Below are positions 1 through 63,115 of a stretch of 64,000 nucleotides of DNA, piece after piece. Below the pieces are notes generated by a model. That model did not search any database and was not told the DNA's origin. It saw only the letters and a program-made list of their open reading frames with translations. Both the position numbers and the translations under genes were made by a program. The number at the start of each line of letters is the position of its first letter. Within the stretch, counting starts at the first letter, position 1. Origin of the DNA: Prevotella sp. (GTDB taxonomy: Bacteria; Bacteroidota; Bacteroidia; Bacteroidales; Dysgonomonadaceae); the NCBI GenBank assembly GCA_031285625.1, contig JAITVV010000048.1:1-64000 (forward strand). Direction: 5' to 3'.

Positions 1-236
1 TTTTTATAATAATTGCCCCCTGTGTAGTATACGTTGTAGTACAGGAATGTTATAGCCGGATTAATATGTTAGTAATCAGTCGGATGAAAATTAAAGAAAC
101 TTGTCAAAAGTAACAGCTTTCACATAATTCTATTTGTTACCTTTTTGTTACCTTTCAATTATACACCTTATTATAAGATAAATTAAGAACAAGTTATAAT
201 GTCAAACCTGAACAGATTTGATAAAAGATAGAATAC

Positions 237-4897: not shown

Positions 4898-7333
4898 TTA
4901 TTGCATTACTTCTTCATCCGGAATTATATCCTGAATAGATGTAGATAAACCGTTGATACGCTCCTGCAGATTATATTTGCGAATCAATTCCGCAACCTCA
5001 GGATCCAGTGGTGCACGATATACCTTAGACGGATCTAATTCACAAGCACGCATCAGGTGATCAATAGCTTCATTGTCTTTATTTGAACGGATAGATAATA
5101 TTGTGCGTAGATATTCATTATTTCCAGTCTCCGGAAGATTATCCAACACTTCTTTAGCTTTTGCATTATATCCCATACAGATCAAACATAATGCTGTATT
5201 GTAATCCGGATAATCAGACAGGATTTCCAAAGCTTTCCAGTATTCTCTATCTTGAAGCAGTTTCAGGCCTTTCTCATAATTTGGTCTCTCCTGTACATCA
5301 ACTGCTGTTTCGGTATCCATATTAGGACGATGCATATTGAATTCAAATACAGCTTTATTTAGAAGAGGATATATTGAATCTCTTATAACTTTATAGTCAT
5401 CAGGGAAATCTTTCTTTATTTGTGTTTCAGTACCGTCAGGATCGATAGCTCCTTCCAGCAATGCCAGAATCTGAGTCTTATTCATTATATCGTTCCGTTG
5501 CATAATCTGAGCAGCTAGTGTATTCCAGTCTTCACCCGAATGTTCAACCTTAATTACATTGCTGGCATCTCTGATCTCTCCGGATAGTGATTTCACGAAA
5601 TAATCCTTTATGGCCTGGGAACGTTTTTCCGATAACTTATAATTATTATCATAAGAGCCATCCAGTGCTGTAGAAACTCTAAGAACAATGCTATCAACTA
5701 CAAATTTACCATCTTCAGTAAATGCACGGTAAGTAGTCAGCATTTTATTCAATTCAGCTTTATTATCCTGATAATTCAGACTAAAGTTTGATTTGCCCGG
5801 TTGAAATTTGATATAAGTTGTCAAACGATTATAAGCATCCCTGTACAATTTGGTTCTCTTAAATACCAAAGATGTATCAACGAGTTGAGACAGAGAAGAT
5901 ATAAAGTAAGAAATAGTATCGGCAGGAGGCATAATATACCTACTACGGTCAATAGCATCTACTCTACCATCCATTGTAAGACGCAGTTTCTTCAAACCTA
6001 CTGTTACCGGATGATCTTGTTTATAGTAATATACAAAATCGCGACCAGCATCTACAATACTGTCAAGGCGCATACCTTGCTCATATGGAAAAGGAATCAT
6101 TTCTTTAGCTACATCATCTTTCCTTTCCTTCTTCATTTCATTTTCAGCAATAGCCTCAAACATATACCTGTTTTTAGCCATTTCGATAGAATCGCTTTCT
6201 GTCAATACATTATTTATGATATCATCTAATGAACGTCCCTCTTCGTATGCTTCGCGGAATTTAGCAGGCATTTTCATATAGCTTACCTCAAAATCCTTAT
6301 CATCTAACACCAGAGATTTAGCATTTTTATTGAATTTCTTCATGTATTGATCAAACAGGCCAACAGTATCTTTACCATTAGTCATATCACGCATCACCTG
6401 TTCACGCGCCTTACGAACATACTCATTGTAGAAACGTTGACGATATCCTTTCAATTTGGCAAGTTCAGCAGCATCAAATTTGCTCTTTTCAGTCTTCCAC
6501 TTTTCATATTCCATCTGCTTACTCCATTCTCTGTAATATTCTTCATAATACATATTCTGGCGATTGCGGATATCCTTTTCTGTTCCTTCTCGATCAAAGA
6601 ATATATCATCATATTTATCGTCTCCAACTATAGACTTCATATATTGATCATAGTCTGCATAATCCTGTTTTTGCTTAGCAAGGAAAGCATGACCTTTTAA
6701 TATAACATCTTTCAAAGGGATAATTGAGTCATTATGGAATAATTTAGGATGTAAAGTCATTCTAAAGTTTTCTGATAAAAGTTCTTTTGGAACCTTTACT
6801 ATAAAGTCAACACTTACTCGCCCATTACGCTCAGGAGTGAAACGTGATTTTGCAGTTACAACAACTTCAGATAAATGCTGCACATCACTAAGACTAGTTG
6901 GCTTTTGATTTTCTTTATCAACAGATTCCGTAATGTTTTCAGCATTGGTAAATGTAACTTCTTCCGAAACGGTTCTAGTACCAGCCCCAAAACCTTTTAC
7001 GCCTTCCTGAAAAGGCAGTTCGATATTAGCCTTCTTTAATTGTTGCATAAACAAAGGTTTAACCATGGCTTCTTTAGGTTTACCTCCTGAATAAGAAAAA
7101 CCACGTGAAGCAACATCTTCTCCCCGCGCAGCACGTATATCACGTACCGAATTGGATTTACAAGAGAACATGATTAAAATAAAAACGGCCATCAAAGGCA
7201 TGGACAGAAGCGCTAGCCGAGAAGTAGAGGCATTAATGCTTTTTTTCATAAGTTTATTTTCGTATCTCATTAAACAGCAATGATTTGTAAAGTTTCTGTA
7301 AAAAACTGTGCAAAGATAATGAATATCATGCAA
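4898..7333 (-). CDS. Large lipoprotein with DUF3868-like and OmpA-like C-terminal regions plus TPR-like tail; true start probably downstream (MKKSINAST)
   Basis: Lipobox MFSC; F.PGKS...N..EL, DGSYDNNYKLSEKRSQAIKDY, GEDW, IYPLL resemble Bacteroidetes OmpA-like proteins. Confidence 0.6.
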   Translation of the reverse strand: MHDIHYLCTVFYRNFTNHCCLMRYENKLMKKSINASTSRLALLSMPLMAVFILIMFSCKSNSVRDIRAARGEDVASRGFSYSGGKPKEAMVKPLFMQQLKKANIELPFQEGVKGFGAGTRTVSEEVTFTNAENITESVDKENQKPTSLSDVQHLSEVVVTAKSRFTPERNGRVSVDFIVKVPKELLSENFRMTLHPKLFHNDSIIPLKDVILKGHAFLAKQKQDYADYDQYMKSIVGDDKYDDIFFDREGTEKDIRNRQNMYYEEYYREWSKQMEYEKWKTEKSKFDAAELAKLKGYRQRFYNEYVRKAREQVMRDMTNGKDTVGLFDQYMKKFNKNAKSLVLDDKDFEVSYMKMPAKFREAYEEGRSLDDIINNVLTESDSIEMAKNRYMFEAIAENEMKKERKDDVAKEMIPFPYEQGMRLDSIVDAGRDFVYYYKQDHPVTVGLKKLRLTMDGRVDAIDRSRYIMPPADTISYFISSLSQLVDTSLVFKRTKLYRDAYNRLTTYIKFQPGKSNFSLNYQDNKAELNKMLTTYRAFTEDGKFVVDSIVLRVSTALDGSYDNNYKLSEKRSQAIKDYFVKSLSGEIRDASNVIKVEHSGEDWNTLAAQIMQRNDIMNKTQILALLEGAIDPDGTETQIKKDFPDDYKVIRDSIYPLLNKAVFEFNMHRPNMDTETAVDVQERPNYEKGLKLLQDREYWKALEILSDYPDYNTALCLICMGYNAKAKEVLDNLPETGNNEYLRTILSIRSNKDNEAIDHLMRACELDPSKVYRAPLDPEVAELIRKYNLQERINGLSTSIQDIIPDEEVMQ

Positions 7334-25549: not shown

Positions 25550-27004
25550 ATGAAAATATTAACTGGCAATCAAATTAAAGAAGCTGATCTGTATACAATC
25601 GAGCATGAACCGATCAAATCAGTTGACCTGATGGAAAGAGCTTCAAATGTTATTGCGGAATGGATATACAGTAATATAAATAAGCATACTCCTCTCCTGT
25701 TTCTTATAGGTAAAGGTAATAATGGAGGTGATGGCCTGGCTGTGGCCCGTATTTTATATTATGCCGGATACGATTGTTCGGTCTTATTACCTTTTGAGAA
25801 GGAAGCATTAAGCAGAGAGTGCCGTAAAAACCTTGAAAGACTGCCAATTGAAATTGGAAAGAAAGATACCAAAGACATAAAATCCAATACCATAATTATC
25901 GATGCTCTACTGGGTACAGGAGTAAAAGGGAATATTAAAGAGCCTCTGTCATCAATAATTGAAGAGATCAACTTATTACCGAATAAAGTTATTTCTATTG
26001 ATCTGCCATCAGGTATGAAAAGCGAATTTGGAAATATTGATCAAAAAATAATTAAAGCAGGTATAACCCTTACGCTTGAATTTCCCAAATTAGCAATGCT
26101 ATTGCCTGAAGCAGGAGAATACTGCGGAGACATAAAGATACTACCGATAGGACTGGATAAAGAATTTATTAACAATGCTCCATCTACTTATCACTATATT
26201 ACGAATGAGTTTATAGAAAATATAAAACTCAGACGTGAAAAATTCTCTCATAAGGGTACATACGGGCACGCTTTACTTATCTGTGGATCCAGAGGAATGG
26301 TAGGAGCAGCAGTTTTAGCTACAGGAGCAGCATTACGCTCGGGTTGCGGGTTAGTAACAACACATATCCCTGAAGAAGAACGACTTGCTATACAAGTAAA
26401 CCATCCTTCAGCAATGTTAAGCCTCGATGAGGCACCTTATTTTTCGACATTACCCATCAACATATCTAAATATACAAGTATTGGCATCGGTAGCGGGCTA
26501 GGACAAAACCATGAAACAACAAGCACATTCAAACAATTACTAAATAGCATATACAGACCAATTGTGATTGATGCCGATGCCCTAAATATATTATCTGATA
26601 ATTATAACTTAAGACAGCATATACCTGCTGGCTCTATACTTACTCCCCATCCGGGAGAACTGAAACGCCTGATAGGTGAATGGCCGGATGAAGAAATCAA
26701 AATAGAGCATGTGCGAAAATTGGCATCAAATCTACAATCGATCATTATAGTAAAAGGGGCACATACCATGATATGTCTGCCTGATGGCAATTGTTATTTC
26801 AATTCTAGCGGAAATAGCGGAATGGCTAAAGGTGGCAGTGGAGATATACTAACAGGTTATATTACAGGATTGCTAGCCAGAGGCTATGATAGTATTCACG
26901 CAGCCATATTAGGGGTACACAGGCACGGGCTGGCCGGAGATGAAGCTGCTGAAAAATATAGTGTAGAGAGTATGAACAGTAAAGATATAATAGACTTTCT
27001 TTGA
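25550..27004 (+). CDS. nnr: Bifunctional NAD(P)HX epimerase/dehydratase
   Basis: LMERA, GKGNNGGDG, DALLGTG, HKGTYG, DADAL, TPHPGE, GGSGDIL. Confidence 0.95.
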   Translation: MKILTGNQIKEADLYTIEHEPIKSVDLMERASNVIAEWIYSNINKHTPLLFLIGKGNNGGDGLAVARILYYAGYDCSVLLPFEKEALSRECRKNLERLPIEIGKKDTKDIKSNTIIIDALLGTGVKGNIKEPLSSIIEEINLLPNKVISIDLPSGMKSEFGNIDQKIIKAGITLTLEFPKLAMLLPEAGEYCGDIKILPIGLDKEFINNAPSTYHYITNEFIENIKLRREKFSHKGTYGHALLICGSRGMVGAAVLATGAALRSGCGLVTTHIPEEERLAIQVNHPSAMLSLDEAPYFSTLPINISKYTSIGIGSGLGQNHETTSTFKQLLNSIYRPIVIDADALNILSDNYNLRQHIPAGSILTPHPGELKRLIGEWPDEEIKIEHVRKLASNLQSIIIVKGAHTMICLPDGNCYFNSSGNSGMAKGGSGDILTGYITGLLARGYDSIHAAILGVHRHGLAGDEAAEKYSVESMNSKDIIDFL

Positions 27005-27073
27005 TAAAAAAAGAAGCCCGCAACATCACATCGCAGACTTCCTGTACCTTAACACAAACTTTACAAACTACAC
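27005..27073 (-). ncRNA. Candidate small RNA, paralogous family copy 1
   Basis: Minus strand UGUAGUUUGUAAAGUUUGUGUUAAGG + GAAGUCUGCGAU-GUGA-UGUUGCGGGCUUC-U7; the G-U pairs form only in this orientation. Confidence 0.7.
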
Positions 27074-27078
27074 AATGA

Positions 27079-27126
27079 TATAACTGTATAGCAAGCAAAA
27101 AAGTTCAAAAGGTTTTGTTAATTAAC
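27079..27126 (-). promoter_or_regulatory. ECF-like promoter with upstream palindrome
   Basis: GTTAATTAAC-N10-GAAC-N18-GTTATA, same spacing as 50732-50779. Confidence 0.6.
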
Positions 27127-30573: not shown

Positions 30574-31215
30574 CTATTGCCCTCCTCTGTATACTTTCAC
30601 AAATAGCACAACCATACAAATAGATAAAAATAAGACTGATAGATCCGAATAGGTCTGTAATGACATAATTACAACATCAGCCTCAGGTTCCGTTAAATTT
30701 ATACTGAATTTATAGAAAGTATAATATGTCTCTACAATATTGCAAACGACTCCAACCGCATTAAGAATGAAAGCAATCCCTAATATTTTTAATCCTCCGA
30801 TCCTATCATTTTTGAATTGCAAAAGATTAATCCCGATGATTATGTACAATACAATACGCAGGATAGCCAAAAGATTGAAAAAAAGAGAGGTAATCCCCAT
30901 TAAATAATGAAATTGAAGAGGTAGAACATGTATAAGAACATTTACAATTAATTGTATTCCAAGAGTAATTAAGATAATGTAGATAGCTACCTTGATCTTT
31001 TCTTGTTTATAATTAGTTATATATTGACTAAAAAGAAAGAGTACACACATATTCAATAAATAAAAGGGAAGAAATGCAAGCGTACCGGATATTGTCCAGC
31101 CAATTATTGACCTGAATATATGTGTGTAGATAATTGAGATAAAACAAGCCAGTAAGCTAATACCTACTACAGTCTTCAGATATGATTTCTTATTTATCAA
31201 TTGTTCTGTATTCAT
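30574..31215 (-). CDS. Hypothetical multi-pass membrane protein
   Basis: About six hydrophobic segments; D.IGGL..LG motif shared with 63116-63853. Confidence 0.7.
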   Translation of the reverse strand: MNTEQLINKKSYLKTVVGISLLACFISIIYTHIFRSIIGWTISGTLAFLPFYLLNMCVLFLFSQYITNYKQEKIKVAIYIILITLGIQLIVNVLIHVLPLQFHYLMGITSLFFNLLAILRIVLYIIIGINLLQFKNDRIGGLKILGIAFILNAVGVVCNIVETYYTFYKFSINLTEPEADVVIMSLQTYSDLSVLFLSICMVVLFVKVYRGGQ

Positions 31216-31695
31216 TATTTTTAGAAATATTTCTTGTTAATAAGTGAGAGAATATCTATTGCTATTTCTATACTAAACACAATGTACATAAATATACAAA
31301 TAGTGTAAAAATTTATTAATGATTATCTATCAAGCGGTTGCATTGTTAAAAAGAAATCAAAAGGTATTTTTTAACTTAATTTTCTTGATTATACAGAAAT
31401 TAAGGTTAATTTTGTCTTGTATTCACATGACACAAAACAGATGAACTACTTTAGCTTTAAATTTTTACCTATAATTTCTTTTTCTTTCTTAATGAGAACA
31501 GGTAGTAATTTTATTAAAAAAATTCCTTTTATAGCTTATCTGTTCAACATATTCATGCAAACACTAACCACAATATATCATTCATCAGAATTAATGACTC
31601 CTCATTATTATTTACAACGTGTAAAAAATAAACACTTTTATCAAAAGAGAGTTCAAATTTCGTATTGAAGGGTGTATAAATCTGAAATTATAATT

Positions 31696-31782
31696 ATGTA
31701 GACGCCTGACGTTAACACAAACACACTATTACTAGACTACAGGCGCAACCCTCAGGGAGAAATCCGCTGGGGGTTTCTTTTT
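31696..31782 (+). ncRNA. Candidate structured small RNA carrying the complement of the paralogous sRNA core
   Basis: CGCCUG...CAGGCG stem enclosing UUAACACAAAC...UUACUAGACUA, then terminator AACCCUCAG...CUGGGGGUU-UCUUUUU; no convincing gene upstream on the + strand. Confidence 0.55.
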
Positions 31783-31861
31783 ATAGATTATTTGTACACT
31801 CCTCTTAGCTTATATGAGCTTTTTGATATATTTTTGTGTTTGAAAAGTATAGGAGGATATT

Positions 31862-32716
31862 ATGTCGAAAAATTCTACGGATCAAAATTATAAACCTATT
31901 TCTGTTGGTATAGTAATATCTACCTACAACAATCCGGAATGGCTAAAAAAGACATTATGGGGTTATACTACTCAGTCACATTCTGCATTCGAACTCATTA
32001 TAGCAGATGATGGCTCAGACAATCGAACCCGTGAACTTGTTGAAAGCTTTAAAAAAGATTATTTTCCGGATATAAAGCATGTGTGGCATGCAGATGAAGG
32101 ATTCAGAAAATGTAAAATTCTGAACGAGGCATTGATTGTAGCTGAGTCTGAATATCTCATCTTTACAGATCAGGACTGTATTCCGCGTAAGGATTTTATC
32201 GAAACACATCTTAAATATGCCCAGAAAGGCTATTTTCTTTCAGGCGGATATTCCCGGTTACCAATGGACTTGAGTAAATCTATTTCCTTTGATGATATAA
32301 CTTCAGGAAACGCATTTAATCTTGACTGGCTCAAGACGCATGGATTGAAGTCTTCTTTTAAAAATACAAAATTTACCAAATCAAGCAGCTTCGCTTCTTT
32401 TATGAATTTCATTACTCCTGCCAAAGCTTCCTGGAACGGATGTAATTCATCTGGATGGAAAGAGGATATGTTAGCAATTAACGGTTTCAACGAGGCCATG
32501 CAATATGGAGGACTGGATCGCGAATTTGGCGAAAGGCTTGTCAATTTTGGAATCCGTTCGAAGCAAATAAGGTATTCAGCCATATGCCTGCATCTGGATC
32601 ATGCCCGCCCATATAAGAAAATCGACCTTATAAAAAAGAATAAGGCAATTCGCCGCAATGTGAGAGTAAACAAGATTGTAAGAACCCCATTTGGAATAGA
32701 AAAGACAGAAGAATAA
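31862..32716 (+). CDS. Glycosyltransferase family 2
   Basis: ISTYN, IADDGS, FTDQD, GCNSS, NGFNE, D.EFG.RL. Confidence 0.93.
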   Translation: MSKNSTDQNYKPISVGIVISTYNNPEWLKKTLWGYTTQSHSAFELIIADDGSDNRTRELVESFKKDYFPDIKHVWHADEGFRKCKILNEALIVAESEYLIFTDQDCIPRKDFIETHLKYAQKGYFLSGGYSRLPMDLSKSISFDDITSGNAFNLDWLKTHGLKSSFKNTKFTKSSSFASFMNFITPAKASWNGCNSSGWKEDMLAINGFNEAMQYGGLDREFGERLVNFGIRSKQIRYSAICLHLDHARPYKKIDLIKKNKAIRRNVRVNKIVRTPFGIEKTEE

Positions 32717-50731: not shown

Positions 50732-50779
50732 GTTAATTAACTAAATAGCCTGAACATAATATTATTATATGTGGTTATA
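50732..50779 (+). promoter_or_regulatory. ECF-like promoter with upstream palindrome
   Basis: GTTAATTAAC-N10-GAAC-N18-GTTATA. Confidence 0.6.
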
Positions 50780-50783
50780 GGCT

Positions 50784-50849
50784 ATGTAGTTTTGTAAAGT
50801 TTGTGTTAAGGTATGAGAAAGTCCTGCGACGTGAGGTTGCGGGCTTTTT
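50784..50849 (+). ncRNA. Candidate small RNA, paralogous family copy 2
   Basis: AUGUAGUUUUGUAAAGUUUGUGUUAAGG + AAGUCCUGCGAC-GUGA-GGUUGCGGGCUU-UUU. Confidence 0.72.
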
Positions 50850-51555
50850 AATTTATAATACTACTATTTCTTATTTTGCTTAGATCTACAATTTTTGTTT
50901 CCTCCATCGCCTCCTCATTCCGAAATGTGATCTCTATCTTATGATCAGGCATCTTTTTTATAACATTCTCATCTCCGTTTTCAAATTGCCATTCCCAAAC
51001 AGGAAAATCAAAAAGATTATTCCATTTGTTTTCTTTATAGCTGAAAATATAATATGTATTGGTACTCGACCAATCTGCATAATTGACTAAATATAGTAAT
51101 TCATCGCCTCCATCGCCATCCAGATCTCCTTTATTATCCATAAAATACAGACCAAACAGTTGTCCTCCGGCATCAATAGTAGTAACAGTATCCGTTACAT
51201 TATTTTTGTTGATAATATAGATTACGGGATCTAGTTTCATTGTCCGCTCCACCAATTCATCATAACTTATTTTATCTCCATATAAAAACAATGGAGAAGC
51301 TATCGCTCTATTGAGAACCCGGCTATAATAACATACATACAATGTATCTGTTTTCCCATCTCCCTTCCAATTACCAGTAACCATTTCCGGAGTATAACCA
51401 CTCAGAGATTGCGGAACTTCTTGAATATCCCAGTTTAAAGGAACTTTATTATCTGCAAGGCAAATCGAATCAATAATTACATTTCCGTTATTTGCTGTTT
51501 GATTTTTATTGCAGGATATAGTTGCTATAAAAAGTAAAATAATAATTTTTTTCAT
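50848..51555 (-). CDS. Hypothetical lipoprotein
   Basis: Lipobox ISC; GDLDGDGGDEL Ca-binding-like loop. Confidence 0.75.
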   Translation of the reverse strand: MKKIIILLFIATISCNKNQTANNGNVIIDSICLADNKVPLNWDIQEVPQSLSGYTPEMVTGNWKGDGKTDTLYVCYYSRVLNRAIASPLFLYGDKISYDELVERTMKLDPVIYIINKNNVTDTVTTIDAGGQLFGLYFMDNKGDLDGDGGDELLYLVNYADWSSTNTYYIFSYKENKWNNLFDFPVWEWQFENGDENVIKKMPDHKIEITFRNEEAMEETKIVDLSKIRNSSIIN

Positions 51556-62883: not shown

Positions 62884-62904
62884 TACACGAGATAATATAA
62901 ATGC

Positions 62905-62968
62905 AAAAAGGTCCCGATATCACATCGTAGACCTCTTCAACCTTAACACAAACTTTACAAAACTACAT
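62905..62968 (-). ncRNA. Candidate small RNA, paralogous family copy 3
   Basis: Minus strand AUGUAGUUUUGUAAAGUUUGUGUUAAGG + AGGUCUACGAU-GUGA-UAUCGGGACCU-UUUU; both flanking genes are on +; AAAC-N17-GTTATA at 62998-62972. Confidence 0.72.
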
Positions 62969-63115
62969 ATATATAACGCCTGTTTCCTGAAATTGTTTTA
63001 TCAAAACCACCAATTTATTACTAAATAAGGATTATTTTTGCTAAAAAGTGTTTATCTTACTCTATTGATAAAACTCAAGTTGTATATATTCGCATGACAT
63101 CTTACTTTTAAAACG

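Follow-up and report, generated by a model that had tools for sequence, protein, structure and literature searches.

The window analysed here, a 64-kb stretch taken from a 4.84-Mb genome in 96 contigs (G000), carries on its plus strand a compact candidate RNA element followed by a gene for a family 2 glycosyltransferase, GT2 (Table 1). The 91-nt stretch 31696-31786, which comprises a stem-loop and a terminator hairpin, is predicted to fold at -28.1 kcal/mol (z -4.09), and none of 200 shuffles folds as well. The closing stem of the stem-loop, H1, encloses a loop of 31 nt displaying two segments, A and B, which are antisense to the 5′ core of a multicopy family of small RNA (sRNA) genes in the same genome. 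In genomic DNA letters segment B reads TTAACACAAAC and segment A reads TTACTAGACTACA, the latter running over into the start of the 3′ arm of H1. Re-reading of the letters upheld the coordinates and sequences that the initial annotation had given for the stem and for both loop segments, including the perfect 11-nt complement between segment B and the family sequence. There is also an alternative to the closing stem, in which UGUAG at 31697-31701 could pair with CUACA at 31736-31740; the two helices are mutually exclusive, and the alternative pairing is kept in three relatives (G026, G019 and G022), where both of its sides have changed (UGCAG, CUGCA). Rfam 15 gave no matches at gathering score in the window, and in 31300-31900 only matches at chance level (E at least 1.9).

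Table 1. Positions, in window coordinates, of the candidate RNA element, its neighbour and the proposed partner genes
Feature	Position	Strand	Basis or remark
Putative promoter P1: CTTG, 19-nt spacer, TAATTTTG (-7 box 31407-31414)	31384-31414	+	Conserved block in G027 and G026
Probable transcript body, poorly conserved, apparently non-coding	31419-31699	+	Hardly alignable; no conserved ORF
H1 5′ arm, CGCCUG	31703-31708	+	Sequence, fold; invariant in 5/5 orthologs
Anti-core segment B, UUAACACAAAC	31712-31722	+	Perfect complement of family GUUUGUGUUAA; mean P(unpaired) 0.80
Anti-core segment A, UUACUAGACUACA	31729-31741	+	Pairs with family UGUAGUUUUGUAA; mean P(unpaired) 0.61
H1 3′ arm, CAGGCG	31740-31745	+	Sequence, fold; arms invariant in orthologs
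Intrinsic terminator: hairpin 31747-31775, then UUUCUUUUU	31747-31784	+	Fold, orthologs
Putative promoter of the GT2 gene, -7 box TATTTTTG	31829-31836	+	Counterpart in G027 and G026
Glycosyltransferase family 2 gene, neighbour outside the RNA	31862-32716	+	PF00535, E 2.5e-20
Family sRNA copy, proposed pairing partner	27006-27073	-	R1, 81.1 bits
Family sRNA copy, proposed pairing partner	50784-50854	+	R1, 81.4 bits
Family sRNA copy, proposed pairing partner	62900-62968	-	R1, 79.5 bits

The terminator belongs to the plus strand in more than one respect. Folded alone, it reaches -18.5 kcal/mol on this strand against -14.1 kcal/mol on the other, and its U-G pair is present on the plus strand only, so that folding of both strands bears out the U-tailed plus-strand terminator described initially. 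The hairpin was flagged by a custom genome-wide terminator scan. A simple scanner returned no terminators between 31000 and 32000 because the hairpin breaks the loop rule of that scanner, and its result says nothing on the absence of a terminator.

Orthologs of the element were found, by BLAST and with a model of the stem-loop and terminator (R2), in five of the 35 genomes of the genus, namely G000, G027, G026, G019 and G022, at 94-120 bits. These five orthologs represent three sequence types, and 14 weak R2 matches from 14 genomes proved on inspection to be bare terminators. Between the lineages the domain is 77-88% identical and its flanks are unalignable. Both arms of H1 are invariant among the orthologs; of the 11 terminator pairs, five change on both sides, with 94.5% of the cells paired, and a T-rich tail follows on the plus strand in every one of the five. 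The minus strand has neither a hairpin nor a U-tail downstream, and the complement of the plus-strand terminator lies directly upstream of it. Since compensatory changes preserve the terminator, and every ortholog has its U-tail on the plus strand, this strand is most likely the functional one, and we consider it quite probable that it is the strand of the RNA product. One further argument for this strand was set aside: the transitions that lead away from the perfect complement all retain a G-U pair, yet about three quarters of the possible transitions would do so anyway.

Wider searches for further lineages brought in no new sequence types among the relevant matches. The stem-only pattern returned from genome contigs, among the matches listed, mostly unrelated G+C-rich genomes, the relevant ones being of known types, and a pattern run on metagenome contigs returned six stretches, three of known types and three unrelated. 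One of the former, L385 (metagenome contig, about 111-129, minus strand), is a G026-type copy with an interrupted loop, whose sequence departs wholly after ATTTATC; the break may represent an insertion or a rearrangement breakpoint.

What could be the extent of the transcript that ends at this terminator? A second conserved block, 31367-31421, lies about 290 nt upstream of the stem-loop and holds the putative promoter P1. The promoter consensus of Bacteroidota, as stated in the accessible part of PMC7366714, has TTTG near -33 and TAnnTTTG near -7. P1 fits this consensus, its -7 box being a perfect TAnnTTTG, and would place the start site near 31419. Exactly two perfect TAnnTTTG boxes are present on the plus strand of the region in each of G000, G027 and G026, one upstream of the stem-loop and the other between the terminator and the GT2 start. 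The block around the latter (31788-31836) is 78% identical to its counterpart in G027. Between the terminator and this GT2 promoter block, G027 carries a G+C-rich stretch of about 190 nt (L067:1606-1798), which is absent from G000 and G026.

Since a box stands upstream at P1, none stands directly before the stem-loop and no conserved ORF lies between, a non-coding primary transcript of about 360 nt is likely. The element is probably, to judge from these motifs, the 3′ domain of such an RNA, which would measure about 300-320 nt in the relatives; this domain is predicted to fold in the same way inside the full transcript. In G027 and G026 the interval matching 31419-31699 contains no ATG ORF of at least 15 aa, and the 75/83-aa ORF of G000 (83-aa form, 31417-31668) was discarded as a candidate, as it is without relatives and not conserved. 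A primary transcript of about 85 nt was likewise rejected for want of a perfect TAnnTTTG box directly upstream of the stem-loop; processing to a fragment of about 85 nt is possible. The element is probably no RNA of 87 nt standing by itself; the unit is probably some 300-360 nt long with its conserved promoter about 290 nt upstream. Four RNA-library runs, of seven found, are represented by assembled contigs, which carry neither strand nor ends and whose depth cannot rank the parts of the region. In run X1 a contig of 351 nt (31401-31751, depth 32.9) lies beside another at 31266-31426 with a depth of 2.9; unreliable as depth is here, these values would fit a start near P1. Contigs end at 31751/31753 in runs X1 and X5. 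We infer transcription and the ends of the RNA from the promoter and terminator motifs.

The proposed partners of the loop form a multicopy family. Seven clear copies of a 68-70-nt gene are present in G000, each consisting of A or G followed by TGTAGTTTTGTAAAGTTTGTGTTAAGG and a terminator, and a covariance model built from these seven copies (R1) yields 12 matches in the same genome. With R1 the family was found in all 35 genomes of the genus, at 2-26 matches per genome, and in six of the 151 genomes in a sample of the order, two of these six belonging to the genus. The 5′ core of 28 nt is practically invariant, being identical in 41 loci except for one base in one locus and a preceding run shorter by one T in one locus. 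It is predicted to be open, with P(unpaired) of 0.55-0.87. The 11-mer GTTTGTGTTAA occurs exactly four times in the window (27049-, 31712-, 50799+ and 62943-) and ten times genome-wide, of which seven are in family genes, one is at the present locus and two are apparently due to chance. Rfam gave no matches for this Dysgonomonas family, either at gathering score in the window or at E up to 1 for eight family loci.

The limits of the family transcript bear on how much of the loop could be used. The family core holds a perfect TAnnTTTG, TAGTTTTG; if this were the family promoter, the sRNA would be left without the partner of segment A, and about 11-13 pairs would be left. In one family copy the run at the place of TAGTTTTG is shorter by one T, and the same shorter run is found in G000 and G026, which weakly favours RNA over promoter at this place. 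No clear TAnnTTTG box was seen upstream of the family genes (26950-27110, 50740-50790 and 62965-63010 in the window; 41 family loci). TTATA or CTATT occurs in the last 14 nt of 34 of the 41 distinct family upstream sequences, and GAAC about 27-33 nt upstream in 13 of them; the upstream motifs of the family genes may reflect a different type of promoter.

As for targets of the family, an anti-core-like sequence, ACAGAAACTTTACAAATCATTGC, was noticed at 7277-7303 (-) of the window. It closely follows a TATCTTTG box, and some 35 nt separate it from the start of a minus-strand ORF of 790 aa, the first 500 aa of which gave no Pfam match. This site could be an mRNA target of the family. SusC-like genes stood behind none of seven anti-core-like 5′ sites, which belong to hand-picked genes and so are no test of targets of the FopS kind discussed below.

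The predicted duplex between a 29-nt core and the stem-loop amounts to -24.6 kcal/mol in G000, and to -27.9, -24.8, -24.3 and -24.3 kcal/mol in the other orthologs. Dinucleotide shuffles reach these energies in 0-3 cases of 1000 per locus (3/1000 for G000). Cofolded with three family members, the stem-loop opens its closing stem for a predicted net gain between -14.8 and -16.6 kcal/mol, and both kinds of energy thus agree with the earlier claim that the loop can bind nearly the whole core by invading the stem that closes it. Over the full length of the transcript, no region other than the 3′ domain is conspicuous for pairing with the core. Against the genomic background the picture is different. 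In a seeded scan of 2122 genome sites the locus, at -24.6 kcal/mol, comes 14th; those that equal or surpass it number 13 and mostly represent the strand opposite a family gene, and three unrelated sites do as well. The locus takes first place when the 70-nt windows preceding 3388 predicted terminators are compared, yet 5 of 16 shuffled or reversed control cores also find some window at -24.6 kcal/mol or better. Duplex energy speaks for the pairing when the locus is compared with its own shuffles but not when control cores are tried genome-wide. The duplex energy is not exceptional in this genome, and energy alone proves nothing.

The origin of the complementarity is nevertheless traceable. On the minus strand, about 40 nt of the locus can be aligned with the family genes; the aligned part runs from TGTAG, spans the core and takes in GTCTGC, which makes up the first half of the terminator of the family. 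The alignment scores are 29-34 and those of shuffles 15-16 (sd 2.5); for four orthologs, with 500 shuffles apiece, no shuffle came up to the score. Relative to the family core the minus strand shows substitutions and a 5-nt insertion, so that the invariant core of 28 nt is absent, and the match of R1 to minus-strand positions 31685-31734 (9.9 bits, E 1.6) is not significant beside the 79.5-81.4 bits of true copies. Family genes lie a few kb from the element in all three lineages. On the evidence of these alignments the locus is an inverted and decayed paralog of the family, and a family member no longer. The initial annotation had named a diverged minus-strand paralog as an outcome that would speak against its proposal; as to origin, the alignment of about 40 nt agrees with such a paralog, and as to present membership the weak score and the missing terminator contradict it. 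Because the locus is an inverted family copy, the complementarity exists by descent, and it therefore needs no selection to exist.

Is it maintained by selection? The complementary loop, for whose conservation the initial annotation had looked to relatives, is retained in three diverged lineages, with energies between -24.3 and -27.9 kcal/mol. Of the loop, the two core-pairing segments are conserved; the spacer that separates them differs among the lineages in its sequence and in its length. The changes of segment B among the orthologs are exclusively from A to G, with a G-U pair retained. The best-conserved parts of the element are the closing stem and the bases adjoining it. In six directed comparisons among three related lineages, random mutation under a uniform model, given as many transitions, transversions and gaps as were observed, kept the pairing energy in 36, 15, 10, 200, 30 and 1 of 2000 trials. 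The energy appears, under this model, to be kept better than by random mutation in five of the six comparisons, which favours selection on the pairing. The element is not a general part of the family system, because 30 of the 35 genomes having the family are without it.

Anti-core sequence is found in further units as well, in G000 and in relatives of the genus. When an alignment query made from the anti-core was run over the 3388 terminator-upstream windows, four windows scored at least 28, where 40 shuffled queries gave 0.28 such windows on average. With the same query the locus studied here gets 25, a score within noise: shuffled queries reach 25 in 1.9 windows on average. The two best windows, G000:C21:60256-60366 (+) and G000:C52:212550-212700 (+), are mutual paralogs (80% over 76 nt). 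In each of them a perfect TATTTTTG box is combined with a 5′ hairpin, a non-coding body, anti-core sequence in an open stretch, and a terminator. Their predicted duplexes with a 32-nt core reach -30.3 kcal/mol for the C21 unit and -28.1 kcal/mol for the C52 unit. The C52 unit contains three to four CUUUACA repeats, and both units have an upstream AGGATTTATAA...TTAAC motif in common with relatives in G019 and G022. The anti-core of this pair, too, looks like a family copy in inverted orientation. A further promoter-to-terminator anti-core unit is represented by L264 (G019:C11:19366-19596, -), L263 (G022) and L397 (G026), with a predicted duplex of -27.9 kcal/mol over 27 pairs that none of 300 shuffles equals; it is found in only three of the 35 genomes of the genus. 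From the C21/C52 pair and the kind present in G019, G022 and G026 it follows that the arrangement of promoter, anti-core and terminator recurs.

Anti-core-like stretches were also seen shortly before terminators at G000:C83:6600-6700 (+), G000:C37:17540-17650 (+) and G000:C96 near 30763-30790 (-), with predicted energies of -23.6, -20.2 and -19.4 kcal/mol, respectively, and with 0, 4 and 4 of 300 shuffles as good. One of these three stretches lies about 40 nt after a stop codon.

The reading that we put forward is that the 3′ domain of the plus-strand RNA pairs with the 5′ seed of the family and titrates the family, acting as a sponge or anti-sRNA. We regard this reading as plausible and adopt it tentatively, our confidence falling somewhat short of an even balance between belief and doubt. 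The non-coding RNA would extend from the sigma-ABfr-type promoter P1 to the intrinsic terminator. An inverted copy of a family gene would have given up the terminator of the family and acquired a closing stem together with a terminator on the opposite strand, its loop coming to show two conserved segments antisense to the invariant, single-stranded 5′ core. A family sRNA might then dock on segment B through 11 perfect pairs in the open loop, after which the pairing would spread to segment A across the variable spacer; the 6-bp closing stem would open, and a bipartite duplex of about 25 pairs would cover nearly the whole seed. In consequence the RNA would compete with the mRNA targets and titrate the family, and the decay of either partner would possibly be coupled to the pairing. 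As in the sponge class, the seed complementarity is predicted to be accessible in both partners and is kept in three related lineages. The sequence, the predicted fold, the conservation, the descent and the promoter and terminator motifs are observations; that the two RNAs pair inside the cell, and which way the regulation would run, is inference.

The same plus-strand RNA could instead act on another target, such as G/U-rich mRNA sites or a protein, in which case the complementarity would be a relic of its birth. This explanation is possible, if rather doubtful in our judgement. The well-supported origin by descent agrees with it, as do the unexceptional energy relative to control cores, the restriction of the element to five of the 35 family-bearing genomes and the fact that the closing stem with its adjoining bases is most conserved. 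A mere relic of birth, however, would not lead one to expect that the core-pairing segments are the conserved parts of the loop, next to a spacer free to vary in sequence and length, or that the energy is kept beyond random mutation in five of six comparisons; the existence of further units with anti-core sequence also argues against it. Absence of any RNA function, the locus being a decaying relic beside a terminator or a chance match, seems improbable to us. The two further occurrences of the 11-mer, apparently by chance, and the control cores that match some window equally well show that such matches do arise, but the identity of the domain amid unalignable flanks, the compensatory changes of the terminator and an alignment to the family that 0/500 shuffles reach are difficult to reconcile with this view. 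Still less credence can be given to the minus strand as the product, that is, to a diverged further paralog acting as a family-like sRNA, which we consider very improbable. Its alignment to the family and a closing stem that can form on either strand are what one would expect of it; its R1 score is that of a chance match, there is no hairpin or U-tail downstream, the complement of the plus-strand terminator lies directly upstream in place of a promoter, and two T-to-C changes break the seed-like segment in a core that is identical in 40 of 41 loci and differs by a single base in the other.

The neighbouring gene invites another explanation, raised in the initial annotation as well, namely that the element belongs to the leader of GT2: transcripts from P1 would read into GT2 unless terminated, and binding of a family sRNA would shift the decision. 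The same GT2 neighbour stands on the same strand in three lineages (G000, G026 and G027), in agreement with such an attenuator, and in one RNA-library run the contig depth is similar on both sides of the terminator (32.9 and 38.6), a weak hint given that depth cannot be ranked. Synteny of this kind, however, is expected among close relatives regardless. The alternative is weakened because a perfect, conserved TAnnTTTG box separates the terminator from the GT2 start; a proximal box is present in all three lineages, so that, as far as motifs indicate, GT2 would have a promoter of its own rather than rely on read-through. In G027 the terminator and GT2 are separated by about 480 nt, the inserted G+C-rich stretch included. 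No conserved anti-terminator pairing was seen on inspection of the ortholog alignment, and a distant GT2 relative, L050 (61% identity), is without the element in the 1500 nt upstream. We therefore hold a leader or attenuator of GT2 to be unlikely, and prefer titration of the family.

If this preferred reading is correct, what would it mean? RNA regulation in Bacteroidota is a young field with one well-studied multicopy family, FopS, which is reportedly countered by a protein. A conserved RNA covering almost the whole seed of a family of 7-12 copies would be a simple means of setting a threshold for all of them at a time, and an origin from an inverted copy would show a ready evolutionary route to sponges. 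We further hypothesize, in a more speculative vein and with considerable reserve, that the multicopy family repeatedly gives birth to its own antagonists, inverted copies that come to lie between a promoter and a terminator becoming anti-sRNAs. At least two unrelated kinds would then be present in G000 (31700-31784 and the C21/C52 pair) and a further kind in G019, G022 and G026, and all of them together would make up a layer of sponges, peculiar to this lineage, above a FopS-like regulon, which would be the first such layer in Bacteroidota.

The sponge concept is mentioned in the Discussion of PMC7366714, in the accessible part of that paper. The accessible portions of the literature searched for sponge RNAs in Bacteroides or Bacteroidota describe none, the terms sponge, decoy and anti-sRNA are absent from the accessible text of a 2026 review of sRNAs in gut commensals (PMC13750123), and a search for small RNAs of Dysgonomonas, within the same limits, found nothing. 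FopS of Bacteroides thetaiotaomicron is described, in the available part of PMC11697453, as having 14 copies in which a terminator comes after a 5′ seed that is conserved and single-stranded; the antagonist named there is the protein RbpB, the word sponge is absent from that part, and the FopS model is stated to have been deposited in Rfam. The Dysgonomonas partner family is similar in being multicopy (7 clear copies versus 14), in its length of about 65-70 nt and in having an open 5′ seed and a terminator. The likeness is one of architecture. Rfam gave no matches for the Dysgonomonas family, though Rfam 15 may not hold the FopS model. The Dysgonomonas family also differs from FopS in being found mostly within its genus, as the survey of the order indicates.

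Leaders and premature terminators that respond to sRNAs, an idea cited in the accessible Discussion of PMC7366714, resemble the present element in that a stem-loop with a terminator precedes a gene of the same orientation. They differ from it in that GT2 has its own conserved promoter motif downstream of the terminator and that an anti-terminator was not seen.

A different likeness is to the antisense RNAs of plasmid copy control, CopA/CopT and RNAI/RNAII, which are loop-displayed, cis-encoded and perfectly complementary. Here, too, the complementarity resides in a hairpin loop, and pairing would begin at the loop and spread into the stem. The present element is, in contrast, trans-encoded, imperfect and chromosomal.

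The closest counterparts are the sRNA sponges and anti-sRNAs of other phyla, such as SroC-GcvB, 3′ETS-leuZ with RyhB/RybB, AgvB/AsxR and RosA. What the candidate described here has in common with these is a site complementary to the seed of a trans-acting sRNA, through which the RNA could titrate that sRNA. It differs from them in that the site comes from an inverted copy of the sRNA gene, is bipartite and is displayed in a hairpin loop, and also in that it would face 7-12 near-identical sRNAs and belongs to the phylum Bacteroidota. Sponges and anti-sRNAs as such are established in other phyla; what would be new here, if true, is a candidate derived from an inverted paralog of the very family that it would bind.
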